Positions 6,097 through 31,685 of a stretch of 41,862 nucleotides of DNA are shown here, one piece after another. The notes beneath the pieces are model-generated. The model had not been told where the DNA came from. It saw only the letters and a program-made list of their open reading frames with translations, and searched no databases. A program made the translations under genes and the position numbers. Positions within the stretch are counted from its first letter, which is position 1. The number at the start of each line of letters is the position of its first letter. The DNA is from a virus (Duplodnaviria > Caudoviricetes): positions 1 to 41,862 of the IMG/VR virus record IMGVR_UViG_3300031910_000021; one strand, written 5' to 3'.

Positions 6097-6273
6097 ATGT
6101 CCACTACCGAACCCCCCGCCGAACCCCAGCCCGGTATCTCCCACGAGACTGAGACTGAACTCGTTACCGAAGAAGGTACTGAGATCGCTCACGAAGAAAG
6201 GATCGAAGTCACGCCGGCCCCCGAACCTGCCGAAGAGCAGAGCCACGGGGACACCACACCCGACGAGGAGTAG
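6097..6273 (+). CDS. Small acidic hypothetical protein (58 aa)
   Basis: AAGGAG RBS; MSTTEPPAEPQ...TPDEE fills the gap before the endolysin. Confidence 0.6.
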   Translation: MSTTEPPAEPQPGISHETETELVTEEGTEIAHEERIEVTPAPEPAEEQSHGDTTPDEE

Positions 6274-7393: not shown

Positions 7394-8051
7394 GATCGGC
7401 AGACTCTTCCTCACCGGCTGGTTCTGGCTCATCTTGGCCGGGGGGCTGCTTCTAACGTCATCACTCTTCCTGGCCTATGGCAGCACACCAGCACCCAAGC
7501 CAGAGCCAGCCGTCGTAGTAGGGCCGGCGGGACAGGCAGGGCCAGCGGGGCCAGCAGGGCCGGCGGGACCACCAGGACCGAAAGGGGACAAAGGTGCAAC
7601 CGGAACCGCTGGAACCAACGGAAGCTCAAGCTCAGGCAGTGGAGGCGGAACTGGAAGCACAGGAGCTACGGGCCAGACGGGAGGCGTGGGAGCAACAGGA
7701 GGAACAGGGGCCACCGGCTCAACGGGTCAGGCAGGAGCGACGGGCGGCACTGGAGCAACGGGCGCAACGGGCGGCACTGGAGCGACGGGTGGGACGGGTG
7801 CAGTTGGCCCGCCTGGAAGTACCGGACCTCCTGGCCCTCCTGGGCCTGCCGGTGCCACAGGTGAGACCGGACCCGCCGGGGCTAGTGGTATTCAGGGTCC
7901 AGCGGGGGCTGTAGGGCCACGAGGGCCGCAGGGGCCAGAGGGACCACCGGGGCCGGCAGGGATGACGTGCCCACCTGGATATACCGCTCAAGCCTTCACC
8001 ATCAAGGAGAAAGGCAGCAGCATCAATATCTTCGGATGCGTGCAGAGCTAG
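7377..8051 (+). CDS. Membrane-anchored collagen-repeat protein (lysis cassette, spanin-like position)
   Basis: N-terminal TM, long GXY tract, C-terminal CPPGY...FGCV disulfide module. Confidence 0.7.
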
Positions 8052-17702: not shown

Positions 17703-18515
17703 ACGGGGTTACCGCCCTGGCTCAGGCCGAGCGGGCTGGAATCGAGGAGGTGGAGGGTGGACAAAGGCTTGGTACCACCATGCCTGGAACTGGGTGACGG
17801 CCCCGAGCATGTGCTCCTGGCCTGGATGTCGAAGAAGGCTGGGAGCAGGGGTTTAGTGAAGCTGGACCCTGCCGGATTGATCGAGCAGGGTGCCAAGAGA
17901 GCCTTCCAGGATCATCACGCCACCAGGAGAACAGAGGCGGCGATGAGGCATCTCCTCGATGGTGACTACATCGAGAGGACCGACATCGGCTTTGAGATCT
18001 CGGACCCCTGTTCTTGTTGGAAGGGAGGTAATCCCCAAAACCCCCTCGCCGCCAGGCGACCCGTAGGTATCGTAATGCGCGGAGCGCATGGAGATGCCGA
18101 AGCACAGTTGTCTGGATTGGTGTCTCCTGTGTCTTCCCTGGGAGTTAAGTCGGAGTCTGTCCAAAATCCAGTCAGCCTCCTGGCGAGGGATTTTTTCCCC
18201 ACGGTTTTCTCAGGAGACATGCGGCCCCAGTTGAACTGGCAGGCCCTGGCAAGGGGCCTCAAGATCTGGAGGTCCGACCACAGCATCAGCCTCAACACCA
18301 TGAGGTTGATGATGGTGGAGTTTGGCCGGCATCCTGAGTGGTGGCGGCGATCAGACAAACCAGTCTGGGTGGTCTTCCTGGGCCGGCGTGACAAGTTGGC
18401 TGCCTTGGTGGAGAGTCGTCGGAAGCGCCATCCTGGCGACCGGAGGTACAGCGCCGGCCAGGGCCGTGACTACTGGCTTGGCCGTCACACCCCCCGTTCA
18501 TACTCCCCGGCATGA
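17694..18515 (+). CDS. Hypothetical protein (possible replication initiator); start uncertain
   Basis: First gene of the replication arm, ATGA-coupled to whiB, upstream of loader and helicase. Confidence 0.45.
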   Translation: MQSTGLPPWLRPSGLESRRWRVDKGLVPPCLELGDGPEHVLLAWMSKKAGSRGLVKLDPAGLIEQGAKRAFQDHHATRRTEAAMRHLLDGDYIERTDIGFEISDPCSCWKGGNPQNPLAARRPVGIVMRGAHGDAEAQLSGLVSPVSSLGVKSESVQNPVSLLARDFFPTVFSGDMRPQLNWQALARGLKIWRSDHSISLNTMRLMMVEFGRHPEWWRRSDKPVWVVFLGRRDKLAALVESRRKRHPGDRRYSAGQGRDYWLGRHTPRSYSPA

Positions 18516-19042
18516 CCAGGCGCACCCCGCTCTGGGTCCGCGGTCGACTGGACCCTGACTTCGACATCGACCCCAGGCGAGGCTGCCTGACCCCTACCGG
18601 TCGTGTCAACGAGTTGTACTTCGACACCAGCATCGAGGCCCTGGCTGCCTGCCAGGCCATCTGCGTCCGCTGCCCGGTGTTCAGAGACTGCACCCGCTGG
18701 ACCCTGGCGAACTACCAGGACTTCCCCTATGGGATTTTCGCCGGCATGACCGAAGAGGTCAGACGGCGCATCCATGAAGGGAAGGAGGTGTACTACGACT
18801 GGCGGCAGGAGTGGACCCGCCGGCACCTCCAGGAGCGCATCGCAACCCGCAAGCTACGGGAGCAATACCAGGCCGGCGAGCGCAAACGAGCCGCGGCCAA
18901 AGCTGAGATGCCACCCTGCCCCCTCTGTGGGCAACGAGATAGTGTCTCCCGCAACGGACGCCAGGTGAACCTCGTGCTCCCTGACCGTCAACGCTACCAC
19001 TGCCGTACCTGTAACCGGAACTTCCTGGGAGAGGAACTATGA
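18512..19042 (+). CDS. whiB: WhiB-family regulator with C-terminal zinc ribbon
   Basis: C...C-VRC-PVFRDC...YGIFAGMT; C-terminal CPLCG..SRNG..QRYHCRTC (InsA-like ribbon). Confidence 0.85.
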   Translation: MTRRTPLWVRGRLDPDFDIDPRRGCLTPTGRVNELYFDTSIEALAACQAICVRCPVFRDCTRWTLANYQDFPYGIFAGMTEEVRRRIHEGKEVYYDWRQEWTRRHLQERIATRKLREQYQAGERKRAAAKAEMPPCPLCGQRDSVSRNGRQVNLVLPDRQRYHCRTCNRNFLGEEL

Positions 19043-22527: not shown

Positions 22528-24098
22528 CCTTCAAGGGGTCGTTGTACCCCTTCCAGGAAGAAGCGGTCGACGCCATGATCGACATGCAACACCTCCTGGT
22601 GGCCTACGAGATGGGCCTGGGCAAGACAGTTATCACTATCGCCGCGGTAGAAAAGCTGATCGAGGACGGCCAGGTGGGCGGGGGGCTGATCATCTGCCCT
22701 GCCTCCATCAAGTTGCAGTGGAAAAGGTTGATCGAGGACTTCGCCCCCGACGCCAACGTGATCGTGGTCAACGGCACAGCCCCTCAGCGCGAGGCCCAGT
22801 ACCAGCGGTACAAGCGCGGCGAGGGTGAGTACTGCATCATCAACCCCGAGCAGATGGTCAACGACTGGGAGATAGTCTCCCGGCTGCCTAGGGACTTCAT
22901 CGTGGCCGACGAGGCGACGTGGTTCAAGAACTTCAAGCCGCAGCGGTCCAAGAAGATCAAGCGGCTCAAGGCCACCTACCAATGGGCCTTGACGGGCCAG
23001 CCAGTGGAGAACCGGGCCGAAGAGGTCTACTCGATCATGTCCTGGATCAACCCCACCGTCCTGGGCAACTTCAAGACCTTCGACGCCGCCTTCATCAAGC
23101 GTGATCCCTGGGGCCGGGTCAGGGTCTATCGGAACCTGCCCACCCTGCACCGGCTCCTGTCCGAGCACATGGTCAGGCGCACCAGGAGCGAGGTAGCCGA
23201 CCAGCTACCCGCGGTAGTGGCACCGGCACCCATCCTGGTGGAAGCAGACCAGGGCACCAGGATGCTGTACCGGCGCATGGTGCATGACCTGGAGGCCGAA
23301 CTGGCTGAGGCCATGAACACCTGGGGGAACTTCAGCCTGAGTGGCTTCTACCGCGGTGAAGAGCAGGGCGAGGCCCGCGGTCGGATCATGTCGAAGATTA
23401 CCTGCATGAGGATGTTGGTTGACCACCCCGAGCTACTGCGGCTCTCCGCGGCGCACTACCGCGGGGTACTACCTGGCAACCGCATGGGCAGCGAGTACGC
23501 CCAGGAGCTACACGCCGCCGGCAGGCTGGAGGGCCTCAAGAAGGCTCCCAAGCTGGATGCCTTGGTGGGGACAGAGGACAAGCCAGGGCTGATCCGAGAG
23601 ATCCTGGAAGCCCACCCCGAGAACAAGATCGTTTTTTTCAGCTTCTTTAAGGACATGCTCGACATCGTGGCCGAGCGCACCAGGAGCCTGACCAAGTCGG
23701 TGCTCTTCACCGGGGCCGTGTCGATCACCAACCGGGACAAGGCCAAGCAGACCTTCGCCACCGATCCTGACACCCGACTCTTCCTCTCCTCCGATGCTGG
23801 CGGGATCGGATTGGATCTTCCTGTAGCAAACTACCTCATATCGTATGATTTGCCCTGGAGCAGCGGAGCGTTCGCCCAACGCCAGAGCAGGATCATCCGC
23901 CTGAGCAGCAAGTTTCCCCAGGTCACCCTGCTGACCATCCAGGTCGCCGGGAGCATCGAGGAGTACCAACACGCCTTGTTGGCCCAGAAGAAAAAGGTGG
24001 CGGAAGCAGTGGTCGACGGCAAGGGGATTAATACCCGAGGAAATCTGACGCTGGATCTCAGAAGCCTGACCGATTTTTTGGGGACCAGTCAGATATAG
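22524..24098 (+). CDS. SNF2-family helicase
   Basis: YPFQ, EMGLGKT, IVADEA, LTGQPVEN, SSDAGGIGLDL, YDLPW, QRQSRIIR. Confidence 0.93.
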   Translation: MTFKGSLYPFQEEAVDAMIDMQHLLVAYEMGLGKTVITIAAVEKLIEDGQVGGGLIICPASIKLQWKRLIEDFAPDANVIVVNGTAPQREAQYQRYKRGEGEYCIINPEQMVNDWEIVSRLPRDFIVADEATWFKNFKPQRSKKIKRLKATYQWALTGQPVENRAEEVYSIMSWINPTVLGNFKTFDAAFIKRDPWGRVRVYRNLPTLHRLLSEHMVRRTRSEVADQLPAVVAPAPILVEADQGTRMLYRRMVHDLEAELAEAMNTWGNFSLSGFYRGEEQGEARGRIMSKITCMRMLVDHPELLRLSAAHYRGVLPGNRMGSEYAQELHAAGRLEGLKKAPKLDALVGTEDKPGLIREILEAHPENKIVFFSFFKDMLDIVAERTRSLTKSVLFTGAVSITNRDKAKQTFATDPDTRLFLSSDAGGIGLDLPVANYLISYDLPWSSGAFAQRQSRIIRLSSKFPQVTLLTIQVAGSIEEYQHALLAQKKKVAEAVVDGKGINTRGNLTLDLRSLTDFLGTSQI

Positions 24099-24108
24099 TT
24101 GGCTCCTA

Positions 24109-24130
24109 CCTGCTCTACTCTTAGAGCAGG
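24109..24130. terminator. Hairpin bordering array 1
   Basis: CCTGCTCTA-ctct-TAGAGCAGG, 9-bp stem. Confidence 0.6.
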
Positions 24131-24583
24131 GATCCGAATCGACAAGCCAGTCCAGTCCAGATCCATACCGACGACCCCTGCCCCGTCTGGTCATCTCGCG
24201 TCGGGCCGCCCCTACCCGCCTCCAGCCGACATGCCTACCCGCACCATGCCCGATCTAGCCACGCCGACAAACCCTCCCAAGTCACGCCGTATCCCATCCC
24301 TCCGAGCCGACATACCCGACCTTGTCCTTCCGGCTCACACCGACATGCCTAACCGGACCATGCCGAGCCGAGCCATCCCGACTCGTCAGCCCAGGCCATG
24401 TTTCATCCCAGATCAGTCCGCGCCAGATCGACGTTCCATGCCGCACCCGATATCAAGCTTGACCCACCCGACTTGCCAACTCTCGATCCAGCCACCTCCA
24501 TTCTGACCGACACGCCCTGCTGCACCCTACCCATCCAAGCCGACTAGCCCCGCCTAAGCCTAGCCGTCCCATGCCGACGAACC
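24131..24583. ncRNA. Pentamer-periodic putative guide array 1: 11 units of (NN-RCC)n-GAC
   Basis: Example unit: gaccc ctgcc ccgtc tggtc atctc gcgtc gggcc gcccc taccc gcctc cagcc GAC. The minus strand reads GTC(GGY-NN)n. Transcribed strand unknown. Confidence 0.75.
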
Positions 24584-24596
24584 AAAGGAGAAAATA

Positions 24597-25325
24597 ATGC
24601 CGAGAACACCAGCAGAACCCGTCGAGGAAATCCCCGTCGCCCGCCTCAAGGAAGACCTTTCCCTCTATCCCCGTCGCAGGATCGACACCACTAACATCTC
24701 CACCCTGGTGGAGGCATATGAAGCCTTCAATGCCGGCGAGGGGGACGAACCTCCCCCAATCATCGTCACCCGCGGCAAAGTCATTGTCGACGGCGTCCAC
24801 CGGGCCAGGGCCAAGCGGAAGGTCTACGGGGATGACGCCACCATCTCCTGCATCGTGCGTCACTACCGGACCAAGGCCGAGATGTTCTACGACGCCTGCA
24901 TGCTCAACAGCGGGAGGGGTCACGACCTGTCGCGATGGGATCAGCTTCATTGTGTCGAACTAGCACGGGAACTCAAGCTGCCCATCGAGCGGCTCGCCAA
25001 GGCCCTGGGCTGGACTTCTGAGCGGCTCCTGTCCTTCAGCGAGAGGCGGGCCACCCAGACCCTGAGCGGCAAAAAGACGCACCTCAAGTCTTCTCTCCTG
25101 TCCCAGAAGAACGGCCCCATAAGCGAAGAGGTGGAAGCGATCAACGAGACACCTGGCGGTGTCGACGGCATGTCACCGGCCTACCACGCCCGCATGCTGC
25201 TGATGCACCTCCAGGCCGACAGTATCCCCTACGAGGCCAACCTGGCTCACAGGTTGGCTGACCTGGCAGCCGCCATCGAAGAGTGGCTGTCCAACTATGG
25301 GGCCGAAGAAGAAGAAGCCCAATAG
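24597..25325 (+). CDS. ParB/Srx N-terminal domain protein
   Basis: AAGGAG RBS; LYPRR...PPIIVT...IVDGVHRARA...LNSGRGHDLS. Confidence 0.8.
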   Translation: MPRTPAEPVEEIPVARLKEDLSLYPRRRIDTTNISTLVEAYEAFNAGEGDEPPPIIVTRGKVIVDGVHRARAKRKVYGDDATISCIVRHYRTKAEMFYDACMLNSGRGHDLSRWDQLHCVELARELKLPIERLAKALGWTSERLLSFSERRATQTLSGKKTHLKSSLLSQKNGPISEEVEAINETPGGVDGMSPAYHARMLLMHLQADSIPYEANLAHRLADLAAAIEEWLSNYGAEEEEAQ

Positions 25326-25337
25326 AAAGGAATCACC

Positions 25338-26117
25338 ATGTCCGCATCCGATATTTTCAAGTTCCAGTCCCGGTGGACGACCTACACCGGATCCCTCCAC
25401 ATCAACACCCTGGTCGGTGGCATCCCCAAGGACGGGGCCACCATCCACGCCTTCGTCAAGGCCCGCATCACCGACAACGCCTCCGAGATGAGCCGCATTG
25501 CCGAAGAGACCATGGTCGAAATGGGTCTTGACCCTGTTCTCGACAAGGATGAACTGAGCGCCGCCCAGGTCGATGAGATCGTGGACAAGGTGTCCAAGAA
25601 GGCCGTGGCCGGCAACGGCTTCAAGCAGATCAACGGTGAACTGGTCTGGGAGGGTCGCTGTCTCAAGGCTGCCCTGAACGAGGCGTGCAATGCCCTCTAC
25701 CCAGGCGTGGAATCCTTCCCCGGCAAGCCCGACAAAACCAAGAAGGGCCTCAAGAGCTACTTCATAGAGCGGGTGGAAGTCGTTGACTACTACATCCCCC
25801 TGGGCCGCACCGAGCCTGACATCAAGGGCGAGGAGCGCATCAAGCACATCAGCGGCCCCCAAGGCAAGCGCAGCGCCATCAACCTCGTGGACGTATGCAC
25901 TGACCTGGACATCACCTTCACCATCAAGGTGCTGAACGACTGGGTGCCACAGGAGTTGTGGCAGGAGCTTTTTGAGTACGTCGAGTTGGGTGGCGTATGG
26001 GCTGACCGCGCCCGCGGTGACGGGCGTTGCGAGCTAACCTCCTGGGAAAAATCGACCGACTCCAGGAGCGTCACCCGCTCCAACGGCAAGCGCCGGCTTG
26101 CCACCACCGCGTCATAG
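25338..26117 (+). CDS. Stand-alone Cas7/RAMP-like protein
   Basis: N-terminal strand TYTGSLHINTLVGGIP; ELVWEGRCLKAAL (cf. RAMP p.ipgssLKGal); LDITFTIKV; C-terminal G-rich loop GGVWADRARGDGRCEL (cf. GlGa.Rs.G.Grf). Confidence 0.75.
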   Translation: MSASDIFKFQSRWTTYTGSLHINTLVGGIPKDGATIHAFVKARITDNASEMSRIAEETMVEMGLDPVLDKDELSAAQVDEIVDKVSKKAVAGNGFKQINGELVWEGRCLKAALNEACNALYPGVESFPGKPDKTKKGLKSYFIERVEVVDYYIPLGRTEPDIKGEERIKHISGPQGKRSAINLVDVCTDLDITFTIKVLNDWVPQELWQELFEYVELGGVWADRARGDGRCELTSWEKSTDSRSVTRSNGKRRLATTAS

Positions 26118-26121
26118 CAGG

Positions 26122-26145
26122 GAGGGGCGGCTTAGACCGCCCCTC
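26122..26145. terminator. Hairpin bordering array 2
   Basis: GAGGGGCGG-cttaga-CCGCCCCTC, 9-bp stem. Confidence 0.6.
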
Positions 26146-26909
26146 ACACCAAACCAAACCGACTTGCCGTTTTCCTTGCCGTGCCTGACCCGATCACGCC
26201 TAGCTGACTCGCCAACCCATGTCTCCCCCAGCCGACTCGCTCCGACAACCCTGACTACCCGACCCTGGCCGTGCCCGCTCAGGCCCTGCCGACTAGCCTC
26301 ACCCGTCCCGGCCCCGTCCTGCCAACCCTTGCCGTGCCGACACGCCTGCCCCAGCCATCCCTCGCCGTTACGGGCCTCGCCTAGCCGACTATCCCCGCCT
26401 TCCCGTGCCAAGCCGCTCCGACATCTCCGGCCCGACCCCCTCAAGCCAATCCGACCCGCCATCCCCGTTCTTTTCTCTCTCAGGCCCAGCCGACTCGCCA
26501 CGCCTCGTCCCCCCCTTCCCGGCCTACCCCACCCTGACCGACCCGCCAAGCCTGCTCCGACCCAGCCGCGCCCTCGCCAGACCTTGCCATGCCGACACTC
26601 CAGTCCCTGCCCCCCTTGCCCCGAACCACCCCAGCCGACTGCCCTTGCCGCATCACGCCGACCCAGGCCAGACCTCGCCAAGCCGACTCGCCCATCCCTG
26701 TCCACCCATCTCATCCCGACTTGCCGTCCCGCGCCACGCCCCGCCGAGTCTTATCCCGCCGAGTCATGCCGACTCGCCACGCCGCGCCGGCCCGTGCCGC
26801 GCCTCGCCTCGCCCCGCCAAACCGACCCACCAATCTCCTGCCCAGTCAACCCGTGCCCCGCCGACTCGCCTCGCCGTGTCATGCCCTGCCCTTGCCTCGC
26901 CTAGCTGAC
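26146..26909. ncRNA. Pentamer-periodic putative guide array 2: about 18 units of (NN-RCC)n-GAC
   Basis: Example units: tagcc tcacc cgtcc cggcc ccgtc ctgcc aaccc ttgcc gtgcc GAC acgcc tgccc cagcc atccc tcgcc gttac gggcc tcgcc tagcc GAC. ORFs here are low-complexity artefacts. Confidence 0.8.
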
Positions 26910-26914
26910 TAACC

Positions 26915-27271
26915 ATGACCTTTCGCGGCCCTCAGTACCTTTTCTGCGGCAGCCGCCTTACCTCAGACACCCTGATCCTCCGACTCCTTCTCACGGGCCT
27001 GAACTCCCAGGCCCGTGAATGGAGCGAGGTCATCACCATCCAGGACAATGGCACCCTGGAGGGGTTAGAACACGAGGTGAGCATGTTCCGCCACCTGAAG
27101 CACCAGGAAGTAGGGGAGTGGTCTGATCCCAACGTCGTACTGTGCTTCATGGACCGGATGTCCATGAACCGCGGTACTGAGCGTCTCCTGCAACGTGCTG
27201 AGACAGAGAAGCGCCCCTGGTTCGTGATTGGCAACGCCAGCGACCGGAGGCAATCCCCGGTGGAGGGTTAA
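26915..27271 (+). CDS. Hypothetical protein, SLOG/YspA-like
   Basis: YLFCGSR N-terminus; PNVVLCF...RGTERLLQRA...PWFVI. Confidence 0.5.
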   Translation: MTFRGPQYLFCGSRLTSDTLILRLLLTGLNSQAREWSEVITIQDNGTLEGLEHEVSMFRHLKHQEVGEWSDPNVVLCFMDRMSMNRGTERLLQRAETEKRPWFVIGNASDRRQSPVEG

Positions 27272-27301: not shown

Positions 27302-27769
27302 ATGGCAACCAAGACCAAGACCAAGCCGAAGCTGGATCTCAAGGGCCTGCGCCAGGAGGTGCGCGAGTGGTACGCCCTCAAGCGTCAGGATGCCCTGCTG
27401 GCACCCAAGCTGAAGAGAGGCACCGACCGGTTCAAGGAACTCCTGGGAATATATGGAGAGAAGGATCCCTCAGACGGCTCTATTTATCTGGATCTGGAAG
27501 AGCCGATGGGGGACCAGCGCATCCAGTTCTTGAAGAACCTGTGCGTGGTGTCCAAGAACATCGACGTGGAGGTGGCCCAGGAAATCCTGGAGTCAAAGGG
27601 CATCTGGGAGGAGATGTCGGAAGAGATCCGCGTCCCCGATGAGAGCCGGATCGCCGCTGCCTATTACGACAACCGCCTCAACGATGACGAGTTCGCCCGC
27701 ATGTTCCCAGCAGTCACTTCATATCGCTTCTTCCTGTTGGACGAAGATCGGAAGCCAGTTCGGGCATGA
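27302..27769 (+). CDS. Hypothetical protein
   Basis: 155 aa; TACCCT -10-like box 7 nt before the ATG (leaderless geometry). Confidence 0.7.
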   Translation: MATKTKTKPKLDLKGLRQEVREWYALKRQDALLAPKLKRGTDRFKELLGIYGEKDPSDGSIYLDLEEPMGDQRIQFLKNLCVVSKNIDVEVAQEILESKGIWEEMSEEIRVPDESRIAAAYYDNRLNDDEFARMFPAVTSYRFFLLDEDRKPVRA

Positions 27770-29321: not shown

Positions 29322-31685
29322 ATGGTGCCGGCAAGGCCCGCCGTCGTGTCGGAAAGGGGAGGGGGCCGGTACCCGCCACCGGCCCCTTCCCTCAACATCC
29401 CGAAGTGTGACCTTGTCTGGATCACACCGGGACAGACTGCGGGGGACTGGAACTACGGGGGCGGGGCGCAACATCGGCGCTGCATCCTGCTCATCGACCA
29501 CGAAGGGGATCACGATACTGGCGAGGGGGAGCGGGACCGCAACGTGGTCAACCGCTCCAGGTACAAGTGGGGGGCACGCGGCTTCACCACCGAGCAGGTC
29601 TATCGATCCGAGACCATCAGGATCGAATGGGAGGCGCGGAACCGCCCCCAACCCATCAAGAAGCTCAAGGACTTCCACGAGTTTGAGTCCTGGGTGGAGG
29701 CCGGCTGCCCAGGTGTGCGCCGGCCCGTCGAGCGGGGCTGCGGCCCCATCGCCACCATTCGCACCATGGAGCAGCTAAGAGAAGTGGTGGAGATCTACTC
29801 GGCATTTTCCGAGTTCGCCTTCGACGTAGAGACCCGCGGTAGCCGGCGGGTTCGCATGCTGCAACCGGGTCGGAGAGTGCTATCGAGATACGCGGAACAG
29901 ACCTCGCCCTGCCTGGCCTGTGGCAACCCCATCTCTTCCAGGCGGCGGGCCTACTGCTCCGACCTATGCCGCAAGACGGCTGACAAGGACAAGCCGGCCC
30001 TCGACACCCGAACCAACGAGGTTTGGTGTCTATCCCTCGCCGGCCCAGGCGTGTCTCACGTCATACCCATGGGGCACCCCGACAAACGCCAGCAGCTACA
30101 TCGGGCCGATGTTTTTGAGGCCCTGCGCCCGTTGTTCTTCTCCAGCCGGCGCAAGATCAATCAGAACGTCGGGTTCGACTTGTTGAGCATCGCCAAGTAC
30201 TACGAGGGCAAGATCCCACCCCCGCCCTACGCCGACATCATGACCATGGTGTTCTTGATCAACGAGAACCTTCAGTCCTACCGGCTGGAGGCCCTCACCA
30301 AGCACTACCTGGGCTACAAGTACGCCGAGAAGTTGGGCGAGGAAGCGTACAACGTCGAGTGGAAGCGGGCCATGAGGTACTCGATCATCGACGCCAAGAT
30401 GGCCTGGATGCTGTGGTGGAAGCTCCACCACGTCCTGGAGGACAAGCCGAAACTGGGCAACCTCTTCCGCCTGGAGATGGACGTGCTTCGGGTACTACTC
30501 GCCATGAAGCAGACGGGGGCCTACGTCGACATCGAGGGGTTCCGGACCCTGAGGCCCCAGTTGGAGACCCAACTGGCTGAGGTCACCAGCACCATCCGCG
30601 ATCTCGGCTTCACGGGCAATCTCAACAGCACCCACCAGCTAGCCAGGTTCCTCTACGACGAGAAGAAGCTGCCCTGCCTGTGGATGACCGAGACCGGCCA
30701 GCGGTCCACCGCGGCCAAGGCCCTCAAGTCCCTGGCTCGCCGGCACCAGGAGCCGCGCAAGATCCTGGAGTACAAGGACGTGAACAAGCTGCTCAGCACC
30801 TATGTGGCCGGGTTCATCCCCACCATCGATGACGACAGCCGGATCAGGGCCAGCTTCAACCAGGCCGTTGCCCGAACGGGCAGACTCTCGTGCAGCGGTC
30901 CCAACCTCCAGAACATCCCAGCCAGGTACAAGGAGTCGGTCGAGGCCACCCTGATACGACAACTTTTCGTGGCCCCACCTGGCCGGCTACTCATCGTGGC
31001 CGACTACAGCCAGATCGAGCTACGCGTCCTGGCCCACATGACCAGGGACAAGATGCTGATGTACGCCTACACCCACGGTCTCGATCTCCACACCCAGACG
31101 GCCAGCCTGGTCTACCGGGTGCCCCAGGGCGATGTCAGCGTCGAACAGCGGGCCATCGCAAAAAACTGCAACTTCAACTTCGCTTTTGAGGGCGGATTTA
31201 CCAGGGTCATGGACATGTCAGGCATCGGTGAGGCACAGGCTCGCGCCGTCTACGACGCCTGGCACCGGGCCTACCCCGGTGTCAAGAGGTGGGGGGCCGT
31301 GACCAAGCGGTCCTGCCTCCAGCACGGCTATGTGGAGACCCTCTATGGGCGAAAAAGACGTTTGAAAGACATCTCTTCCCGAGACCCCAAGGACCGCAGC
31401 TATGCCGAGCGCCAGGCGGTCAATCATCCAGTACAAGGCACCGCGGCTGACCTGGCGAAGATCGCCATCGTCCGCGTCCACCAGGCCCTCCAGGAGTTCC
31501 ATGCCGATCTCGTGCTTCAGATCCATGACGAGTTCGTGATCGAGTGCGACGAGGGGGAGGTGGACGAGGCCATACCGTTTATCAGAGAGGCCATGGAGGA
31601 CATCCGCCTGGATGACCGGCCAGTCCTCGATGTACCCCTGGAGGTCACCATCGGGGTCGGTAAGAACTGGAGCGAGGCGAAATGA
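29322..31685 (+). CDS. polA: Family A DNA polymerase (3'-5' exonuclease plus polymerase); start uncertain
   Basis: ExoI FDVET, ExoII NVGFDL, ExoIII YSIID; TGRLSCSGPNLQNIP; motif A ADYSQIELR; motif B; motif C QIHDE. Confidence 0.95.
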   Translation: MVPARPAVVSERGGGRYPPPAPSLNIPKCDLVWITPGQTAGDWNYGGGAQHRRCILLIDHEGDHDTGEGERDRNVVNRSRYKWGARGFTTEQVYRSETIRIEWEARNRPQPIKKLKDFHEFESWVEAGCPGVRRPVERGCGPIATIRTMEQLREVVEIYSAFSEFAFDVETRGSRRVRMLQPGRRVLSRYAEQTSPCLACGNPISSRRRAYCSDLCRKTADKDKPALDTRTNEVWCLSLAGPGVSHVIPMGHPDKRQQLHRADVFEALRPLFFSSRRKINQNVGFDLLSIAKYYEGKIPPPPYADIMTMVFLINENLQSYRLEALTKHYLGYKYAEKLGEEAYNVEWKRAMRYSIIDAKMAWMLWWKLHHVLEDKPKLGNLFRLEMDVLRVLLAMKQTGAYVDIEGFRTLRPQLETQLAEVTSTIRDLGFTGNLNSTHQLARFLYDEKKLPCLWMTETGQRSTAAKALKSLARRHQEPRKILEYKDVNKLLSTYVAGFIPTIDDDSRIRASFNQAVARTGRLSCSGPNLQNIPARYKESVEATLIRQLFVAPPGRLLIVADYSQIELRVLAHMTRDKMLMYAYTHGLDLHTQTASLVYRVPQGDVSVEQRAIAKNCNFNFAFEGGFTRVMDMSGIGEAQARAVYDAWHRAYPGVKRWGAVTKRSCLQHGYVETLYGRKRRLKDISSRDPKDRSYAERQAVNHPVQGTAADLAKIAIVRVHQALQEFHADLVLQIHDEFVIECDEGEVDEAIPFIREAMEDIRLDDRPVLDVPLEVTIGVGKNWSEAK

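Follow-up and report, generated by a model that had tools for sequence, protein, structure and literature searches.

The window, by which we mean the whole stretch of 41,862 nucleotides that was analysed (IMG/VR record IMGVR_UViG_3300031910_000021, Caudoviricetes), carries what we believe, at roughly 75% probability, to be a phage-borne cassette of the VIPR type, in which a Cas7-fold protein would act on short C-rich units and silence double-stranded DNA at sites spelled by variable dinucleotides (NN). We regard it as a likely new variant among the recently described VIPR RNA-guided silencers. The cassette is 2.8 kb long and is composed of a hairpin, 12 units, a ParB-like gene, a stand-alone RAMP gene, a second hairpin and 19 units. 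An earlier note on this DNA had given the same order, which holds, with 11 and about 18 units; these counts are replaced by 12 and 19 from a Viterbi parse. The components are as follows.

24109-24130, plus strand: hairpin before array 1 (fold of 24099-24145, z -3.49 against shuffles)
24131-24578, plus strand: array 1, 12 GAC-closed units (one a stub of 2 pentamers) of NN-N-YC pentamers, 81 blocks
24597-25325, plus strand: ParB-like accessory gene, 242 aa, likely a vap-type partner (ParB_N clusters of the ESM Atlas)
25338-26117, plus strand: Vipr-like stand-alone RAMP, 259 aa (structure model and profile match to the SUSP1 Vipr family)
26120-26145, plus strand: hairpin before array 2 (fold of 26115-26165, z -3.44 against shuffles)
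26146-26909, plus strand: array 2, 19 GAC-closed units, 140 blocks; the next start codon is at 26915

This is the minimal layout of vipr plus vap in a phage or provirus. As the earlier note had stated, no cas genes are adjacent (none among 8 neighbouring proteins in a Pfam scan), nor is this a repeat-spacer CRISPR, since the combination of repeat-spacer array and cas operon that marks class 1 was not found. A ribosome-binding-like site and an ATG come after the last GAC of array 1, and the start codons lie 6-18 nt past the final GAC of the arrays.

The cassette is an insertion in a replication operon. This follows from the junction between the helicase gene and ORF 26915 (window 24098-26915), where the flanking genes are at most 24 nt apart in 16 of 41 sister-phage loci (some on one contig), and where the RAMP was found only in copies of this phage, unrelated inserts being present in others. 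The RAMP was likewise not found in 9 sister-phage records, most of them partial. The junction is a hotspot, with different inserts of 1.3-3.4 kb in the sister phages, none with pentamer arrays (loci L082, L085, L087, L088, L090, L104, L108, L110, L112, L113, L115, L117, L129 and L131); genes within the inserts of L087, L090 and L129 look ParB-like by eye. Elsewhere in the window, a stretch with a 9-nt period and collagen-like repeats (7520-7954) probably belongs to a tail gene. ORF 27302 is found at 100% identity on a 115-kb metagenome contig (L157), and therefore the window is likely about one third of the phage genome. Because a WhiB-family gene is present (18512-19042, Pfam E 6e-10), we infer an actinobacterial host.

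The arrays are built on a lattice of five nucleotides. The CC lattice peaks nowhere in the 41.9-kb window but at the two arrays proposed earlier, where the 5-nt autocorrelation is 0.13 and 0.24, while 1000 shuffles of each array reach no more than 0.11 and 0.08. GAC, previously suggested as the unit boundary, closes every unit of both arrays in the Viterbi parse. The constant triplet proposed with it did not survive: the pentamer is NN-N-YC rather than NN-RCC. Across the 207 window pentamers, position 3 is G in 54%, C in 20%, A in 16% and T in 10%, position 4 is C (81%) or T (18%), and position 5 is C in 97%. The 4105 pentamers of the non-duplicate related loci give similar values (position 3: G 46%, C 25%, A 14%, T 14%; position 4: C 72%; position 5: C 96%), and hexamers make up about 8% of the blocks in the clade (365/4519). 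Judged from these sequences, only two bases per pentamer are constant, and the third seems to track the target in part. The genes are flanked by pentamer repeats in which fixed and variable parts alternate, as in VIPR systems. The window units abut directly at GAC, without the structured 3' tail of type II (SUSP1).

Comparison of units between relatives is informative on which positions are kept. One unit shared by two prophages retains 18 of 20 NN bases against 3 of 10 triplets. When the choice of pairs did not favour NN, identity at positions 1-3 was 0.82, 0.84 and 0.82; since these unbiased pairs are equal across the three positions, the pattern of a conserved NN and a free triplet is partly a selection effect.

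The earlier note had also proposed looking for homologues flanked by 5-periodic arrays, and such arrays are present at 44 of the 46 loci made up by 45 homologue loci and the window. After removal of 10 near-duplicates, arrays remain at 34 of 36 loci, and the C-rich strand is the gene strand in 34/34, with 0 reversed; these counts refer to the close homologue loci (46 with the window, 36 non-duplicate). No array was called in the DNA around L020 and L031, the former of which has a ParB-like partner. Some relatives carry very large arrays, as in L023 (1975-6697, 34 + 73 units), L027 (5867-7791, 48 units) and L030 (4053-7835, three arrays, 62 units), which offer a rich source of target lists. By eye, the L030 unit ending at 6231 and units of L012, L024, L042 and L013 resemble motifs of HmaC, helicases and ABC-ATPases, and many other units of relatives resemble helicase or ATPase motifs; none of these is counted among the targets given below. 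A member that had not been annotated is found in the cultured phage Mae-JY09 (L247, PP395641.1, 37713-38976), its gene followed by a C-rich array of GAC-closed units, and may serve as an experimental handle.

The partner gene varies across the family. For 24597-25325, the ParB-like assignment made earlier is upheld by ParB_N clusters of the ESM Atlas (0.98), i.e. by language-model features and predicted structure, and is not echoed by Pfam, which gives no hit. In 34 related loci, the gene before the RAMP is ParB-like in 3 (L007, L009, L020), another partner of about 140 aa in 19 and something else in 2, with none called in 10. The partner of about 140 aa (L011-L044) is conserved, and in several such loci a common leader hairpin lies between RAMP and array. 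By likeness to vap1 and tasParB, our guess is that the ParB-like protein has an accessory role.

The RAMP fold suspected earlier for 25338-26117 is borne out by a structure model (pLDDT 80) of the Cas7/Csm3 type, which matches Csm3 and the type VII Cas7 with E about 1e-6 (Z 11.5, rmsd 3.9, 161 aligned residues) as well as three viral models, one of them named RAMP. The protein is thus a single one with RRM core, thumb and G-loop, encoded outside a CRISPR locus. Neither cassette protein was matched by Pfam or PADLOC; weak Cas6_C or RAMPs matches appear in 4 of 75 family members. The family comprises 46 close homologues and, by profile, 985 clusters at 50% identity.

To compare it with VIPR, we identified the SUSP1 locus described in the VIPR paper, whose protein agrees with the structure preprint at H17, R138, D177, W178 and R179, and built a family alignment from it. 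The likeness to VIPR pointed out in the earlier note is confirmed by a profile-profile match to the SUSP1 Vipr family (95%, E 2.4e-8, 132 columns); the close-family alignment against the single SUSP1 sequence gave no match, and only profile against profile worked. In the aligned G-loop, SUSP1 D177 and W178, which read two guanines, are replaced by A and D/x, while R179 of the SUSP1 pyrimidine pocket is invariant in the window RAMP family. The R138 region differs, and no conserved His is found in the H17 region of the family, H17 itself lying outside the aligned part. None of the G-reading residues of type II (H17, R138, D177, W178) is retained here.

What the units may recognise was evaluated with 27 window units of at least 6 blocks against 77 sister-phage sequences (1.1 Mb) and 40 shuffles. 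When one nucleotide is skipped between successive NN pairs, 4 of the 27 units reach scores attained by at most 2 of the 40 shuffles (2 of them by none); skips of 0, 2 and 3 give 1, 1 and 0 such units. For three of these four, the matches are in frame within conserved genes, and the phage's own copies score lower. The fourth has 12/12 at a single site, without gene assignment. The assigned units and two further ones are listed here.

24173-24230, plus strand: sister SNF2 helicase gene, 21/22 at 5 sites; own site 23847-23879, 17/22
26640-26687, plus strand: sister DNA polymerase gene, 17/18 at 3 sites; own site 30174-30200, 12/18
26866-26909, plus strand: sister homologues of ORF 27302-27769, 15/16 at 13 sites; own site 27665-27688, 13/16
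26342-26389, plus strand: in-frame 17/18 match to a phage gene (L199) read by eye as portal, a weak assignment
26827-26865, plus strand: unit reading PNLQNVP, 13/14 in sister polymerases and in the phage's own (30900-30920), not above shuffles alone

These matches support the earlier suggestion that NN are the targeting positions, and they are consistent with recognition that skips one nucleotide, the skipped base lying at the codon wobble position. They also predict an action against sister-phage replication genes. With the plus strand as guide, the single difference between the PNLQNVP unit and the phage's own polymerase would amount to a G-T wobble; it is possible that this unit serves autoregulation or has a host polymerase as its target. 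No target could be assigned to about 21 of the 28 longer window units. Viral contigs scanned for exact matches to two units of 9-10 blocks gave none, and a target scan inside the homologue loci gave no signal under any skip rule.

The third base of the pentamer is not independent of the target. Over nine assigned units, two of which share a target, position 3 equals the target's skipped base at 45.5 of 83 positions against 34.1 expected (sd 2.8) when bases are permuted within each unit, with 0 of 20000 permutations reaching 45.5, the targets compared being relatives and not the true targets. Unit by unit, p ranges from 0.001 to 1.0. In SUSP1 pentamers, by comparison, the corresponding position is T in 32 of 36 blocks. 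We suppose that this base is in part a copy of the wobble base in the target, explained either by weak pairing (a 3+2 code) or by copying of guides in three-base blocks.

Whether the guide motif is one of those named for VIPR depends on the strand that serves as guide. Of the earlier proposal of a GGY strand antisense to the genes, the orientation holds, and the role as guide is now given rather to the C-rich strand running with the genes, which we consider probable because the orientation is fixed, the array is embedded in the operon, a terminator directly follows the L023 array, and the residue pattern fits. Less probably, the same code is carried by the antisense G-rich strand (GG-NNN, opened by GTC), which would make this a canonical VIPR of the NNNGG type. 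The arrays would then be transcribed in the direction opposite to the genes, and the hairpin would form the 3' tail. With NN-N-YC on the gene strand, a GGY/NN, NNNGG, YNNNG or NNNNG motif fits only in that case. NNNGG vrRNAs are indeed among the types in the VIPR paper, the skipped base of SUSP1 faces Y3, the position that the target-tracking base occupies on the minus strand, and DNA targets cannot distinguish the strands. Nevertheless, the orientation is the same whether the array precedes or follows the gene, the SUSP1 vrRNAs are sense to vipr, and the window RAMP lacks the G-reading residues. An antisense promoter would have no room here, given the start codons after the last GAC, or in L023, given the terminator. 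A promoter-like site precedes 1 of 41 arrays (L007; not listed by the standard scan), and none was seen in the window region. Folding was also compared, and two minus-strand units fold more stably than the plus strands, which likewise counts against a G-rich guide.

With the C-rich strand as guide, the arrays would be co-transcribed with the replication operon on the plus strand, and one RAMP subunit per pentamer would form a filament on each short C-rich RNA unit, holding on to YC rather than to GGY. Between units, GAC, a 3-nt step that lacks NN, would break the lattice, ending one filament and starting the next, with or without cleavage. The complex would then bind double-stranded DNA at the first two codon positions within conserved motifs. 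As the cassette has no nuclease gene, the outcome would be a transcriptional roadblock as in SUSP1, which the ParB-like protein would strengthen or spread. The expected consequence is that sister phages are excluded and that a host operon for DNA-end resection is shut down.

A complex that binds RNA targets, or that acts by ParB-like clamping or a partner nuclease instead of blocking transcription, seems quite improbable to us. Among solved folds, the nearest are those of Csm3 and type VII Cas7, which target RNA, and an Asp after strand 1 is near-invariant in the close family. This Asp is not conserved in the wider family, however, and the assigned targets lie on both gene strands (two or three sense, three or four antisense), as binding of double-stranded DNA predicts.

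Host genes constitute a second group of matches. HerA-NurA carries out DNA-end resection that could attack phage DNA. One window unit (26721-26773, plus strand) matches the Walker A codons of bacterial herA at 18-19/20. Hits occur in 21 of 151 Actinomycetota genomes, compared with 1 for the control. One of the 21 hits is unrelated and four in unpublished genomes were left out; the other 16 loci were translated, and the HerA Walker A is read in 16/16 at 18-19/20. Every match has at least one mismatch, in the same block each time. HerA and NurA were identified against 7F6D (E 9e-144 and 2e-23, respectively), with SbcC- and SbcD-like neighbours.

A unit common to the prophages L017 and L039 matches 96 of 201 genomes of one actinomycete family with at most 2 mismatches, against 20 with a control hit. 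Its match is perfect in 13 genomes, and 12 of the 13 perfect sites are in ORFs of at least 1140 aa. The matches read (I/L)EQR(F/I/M)GRIHR, which we take to be a SNF2 helicase motif; all three target proteins tested are the defence helicase HmaA, one of them followed by HmaB and HmaC. A unit of L027 finds JAB genes in 2 of its 3 matches in the 201 genomes, with 0 control hits. In 16-151 genomes, five other window units (26294-26341, 26774-26826, 26495-26542, 24269-24311 and 26597-26639) gave no clear excess over the control. Taken at face value, the matches predict that the cassette is directed at the host in addition to rival viruses.

Such host matches might arise by chance wherever a codon-like pattern meets a conserved motif, the real targets being mobile elements only, a reading we hold to be slightly less probable than action on RNA or by other means. 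The reversed-pattern controls were not codon-like, the herA unit always has its one mismatch, and hma operons and JAB genes may themselves travel on mobile islands. Against chance, the herA unit reaches its 18-19/20 in one single-copy gene across the 16 loci, and the five other units give no such signal. Moreover, the hmaA unit has been kept in two prophages despite changed linkers, matches perfectly in the 13 genomes, and has third bases that spell the right codons (p 0.001). That the arrays are coding or structural low-complexity DNA without a guide role can practically be dismissed, since long Pro/Arg-rich frames do run across array 2 but the period of 5 with frame-breaking GAC, the hypervariable NN, the presence beside homologues and the target matches all speak against it.

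Like the VIPR systems (bioRxiv 10.64898/2026.04.26.720920 and, for the parts available, 10.64898/2026.04.26.720927 and 10.64898/2026.10.15.759431), the cassette has a phage-borne single RAMP with one accessory gene and flanking 5-periodic RNAs, a 1-nt-skip code with skipping of the wobble base, and rival-phage targets with a lower self-match. It differs from SUSP1 in several respects. The GGY strand is sense in SUSP1, whereas the C-rich strand is sense to the genes here; the SUSP1 vrRNAs are about 100 nt with a pseudoknot tail, whereas the window units are 30-60 nt, GAC-closed and tail-less; SUSP1 has H17, R138, D177 and W178, which are missing in the window; and the third base that tracks the target sets the window apart. 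The available VIPR texts name satellites, prophages, other VIPRs and REP decoys as targets, in contrast to the host herA, hmaA and JAB genes matched by the window and its relatives. The word 'ParB' occurs 0 times in the supplement text of 10.64898/2026.04.26.720920 and in the main text of 10.64898/2026.10.15.759431, and was not seen in the former's main text. More broadly, the available running text of the VIPR papers (figures, tables and supplements aside) does not mention a C-rich strand, units chained by GAC, a trace in the third base, a ParB partner or targets in host genes.

Non-canonical VIPR arrays have been described (10.64898/2026.10.21.760802, main text) in which Vipr-like folds stand beside non-GGY cores such as GAC/NN and CAC/NN, which also end in C, as in the window. 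That main text names no GCC or RCC cores and leaves the strand unresolved, and the passages covered give no targets. The present clade may belong to the seven types of the VIPR paper or to the non-canonical clusters. Cas7/Csm3 of class 1 CRISPR share the RRM core, thumb and G-loop and a filament with periodic base flipping, but here the period is 5 instead of 6 and there is no repeat-spacer array or other cas gene nearby. TIGR-TasA with tasParB, in the available part of PMC12045711, is likewise a nuclease-free phage RNA-guided system with a ParB-like gene in the operon and arrays on either side; its effector, however, has a Nop domain and its array is different.

We tentatively propose, at somewhat less than even odds, that a widespread phage lineage rewrote the VIPR code: its C-rich, tail-less, GAC-chained guides would be copies of targets in three-base blocks plus a two-base linker, and would serve the phage as a programmable weapon against the host, silencing herA-nurA, hma and JAB genes at the codons of catalytic motifs. 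If this is true, the third-base trace is the first sequence record of guide acquisition and provides a handle on the open question of how guides arise. It would also imply that the scaffold code can shift from a G-rich to a C-rich form while the protein changes to match, and the tail-less units of 30-60 nt would constitute a compact multiplex format. The decoded arrays would list the host genes that restrict these phages, and VIPR would widen from conflict between viruses to the silencing, guided by RNA, of genes with which the host repairs its DNA and defends itself.
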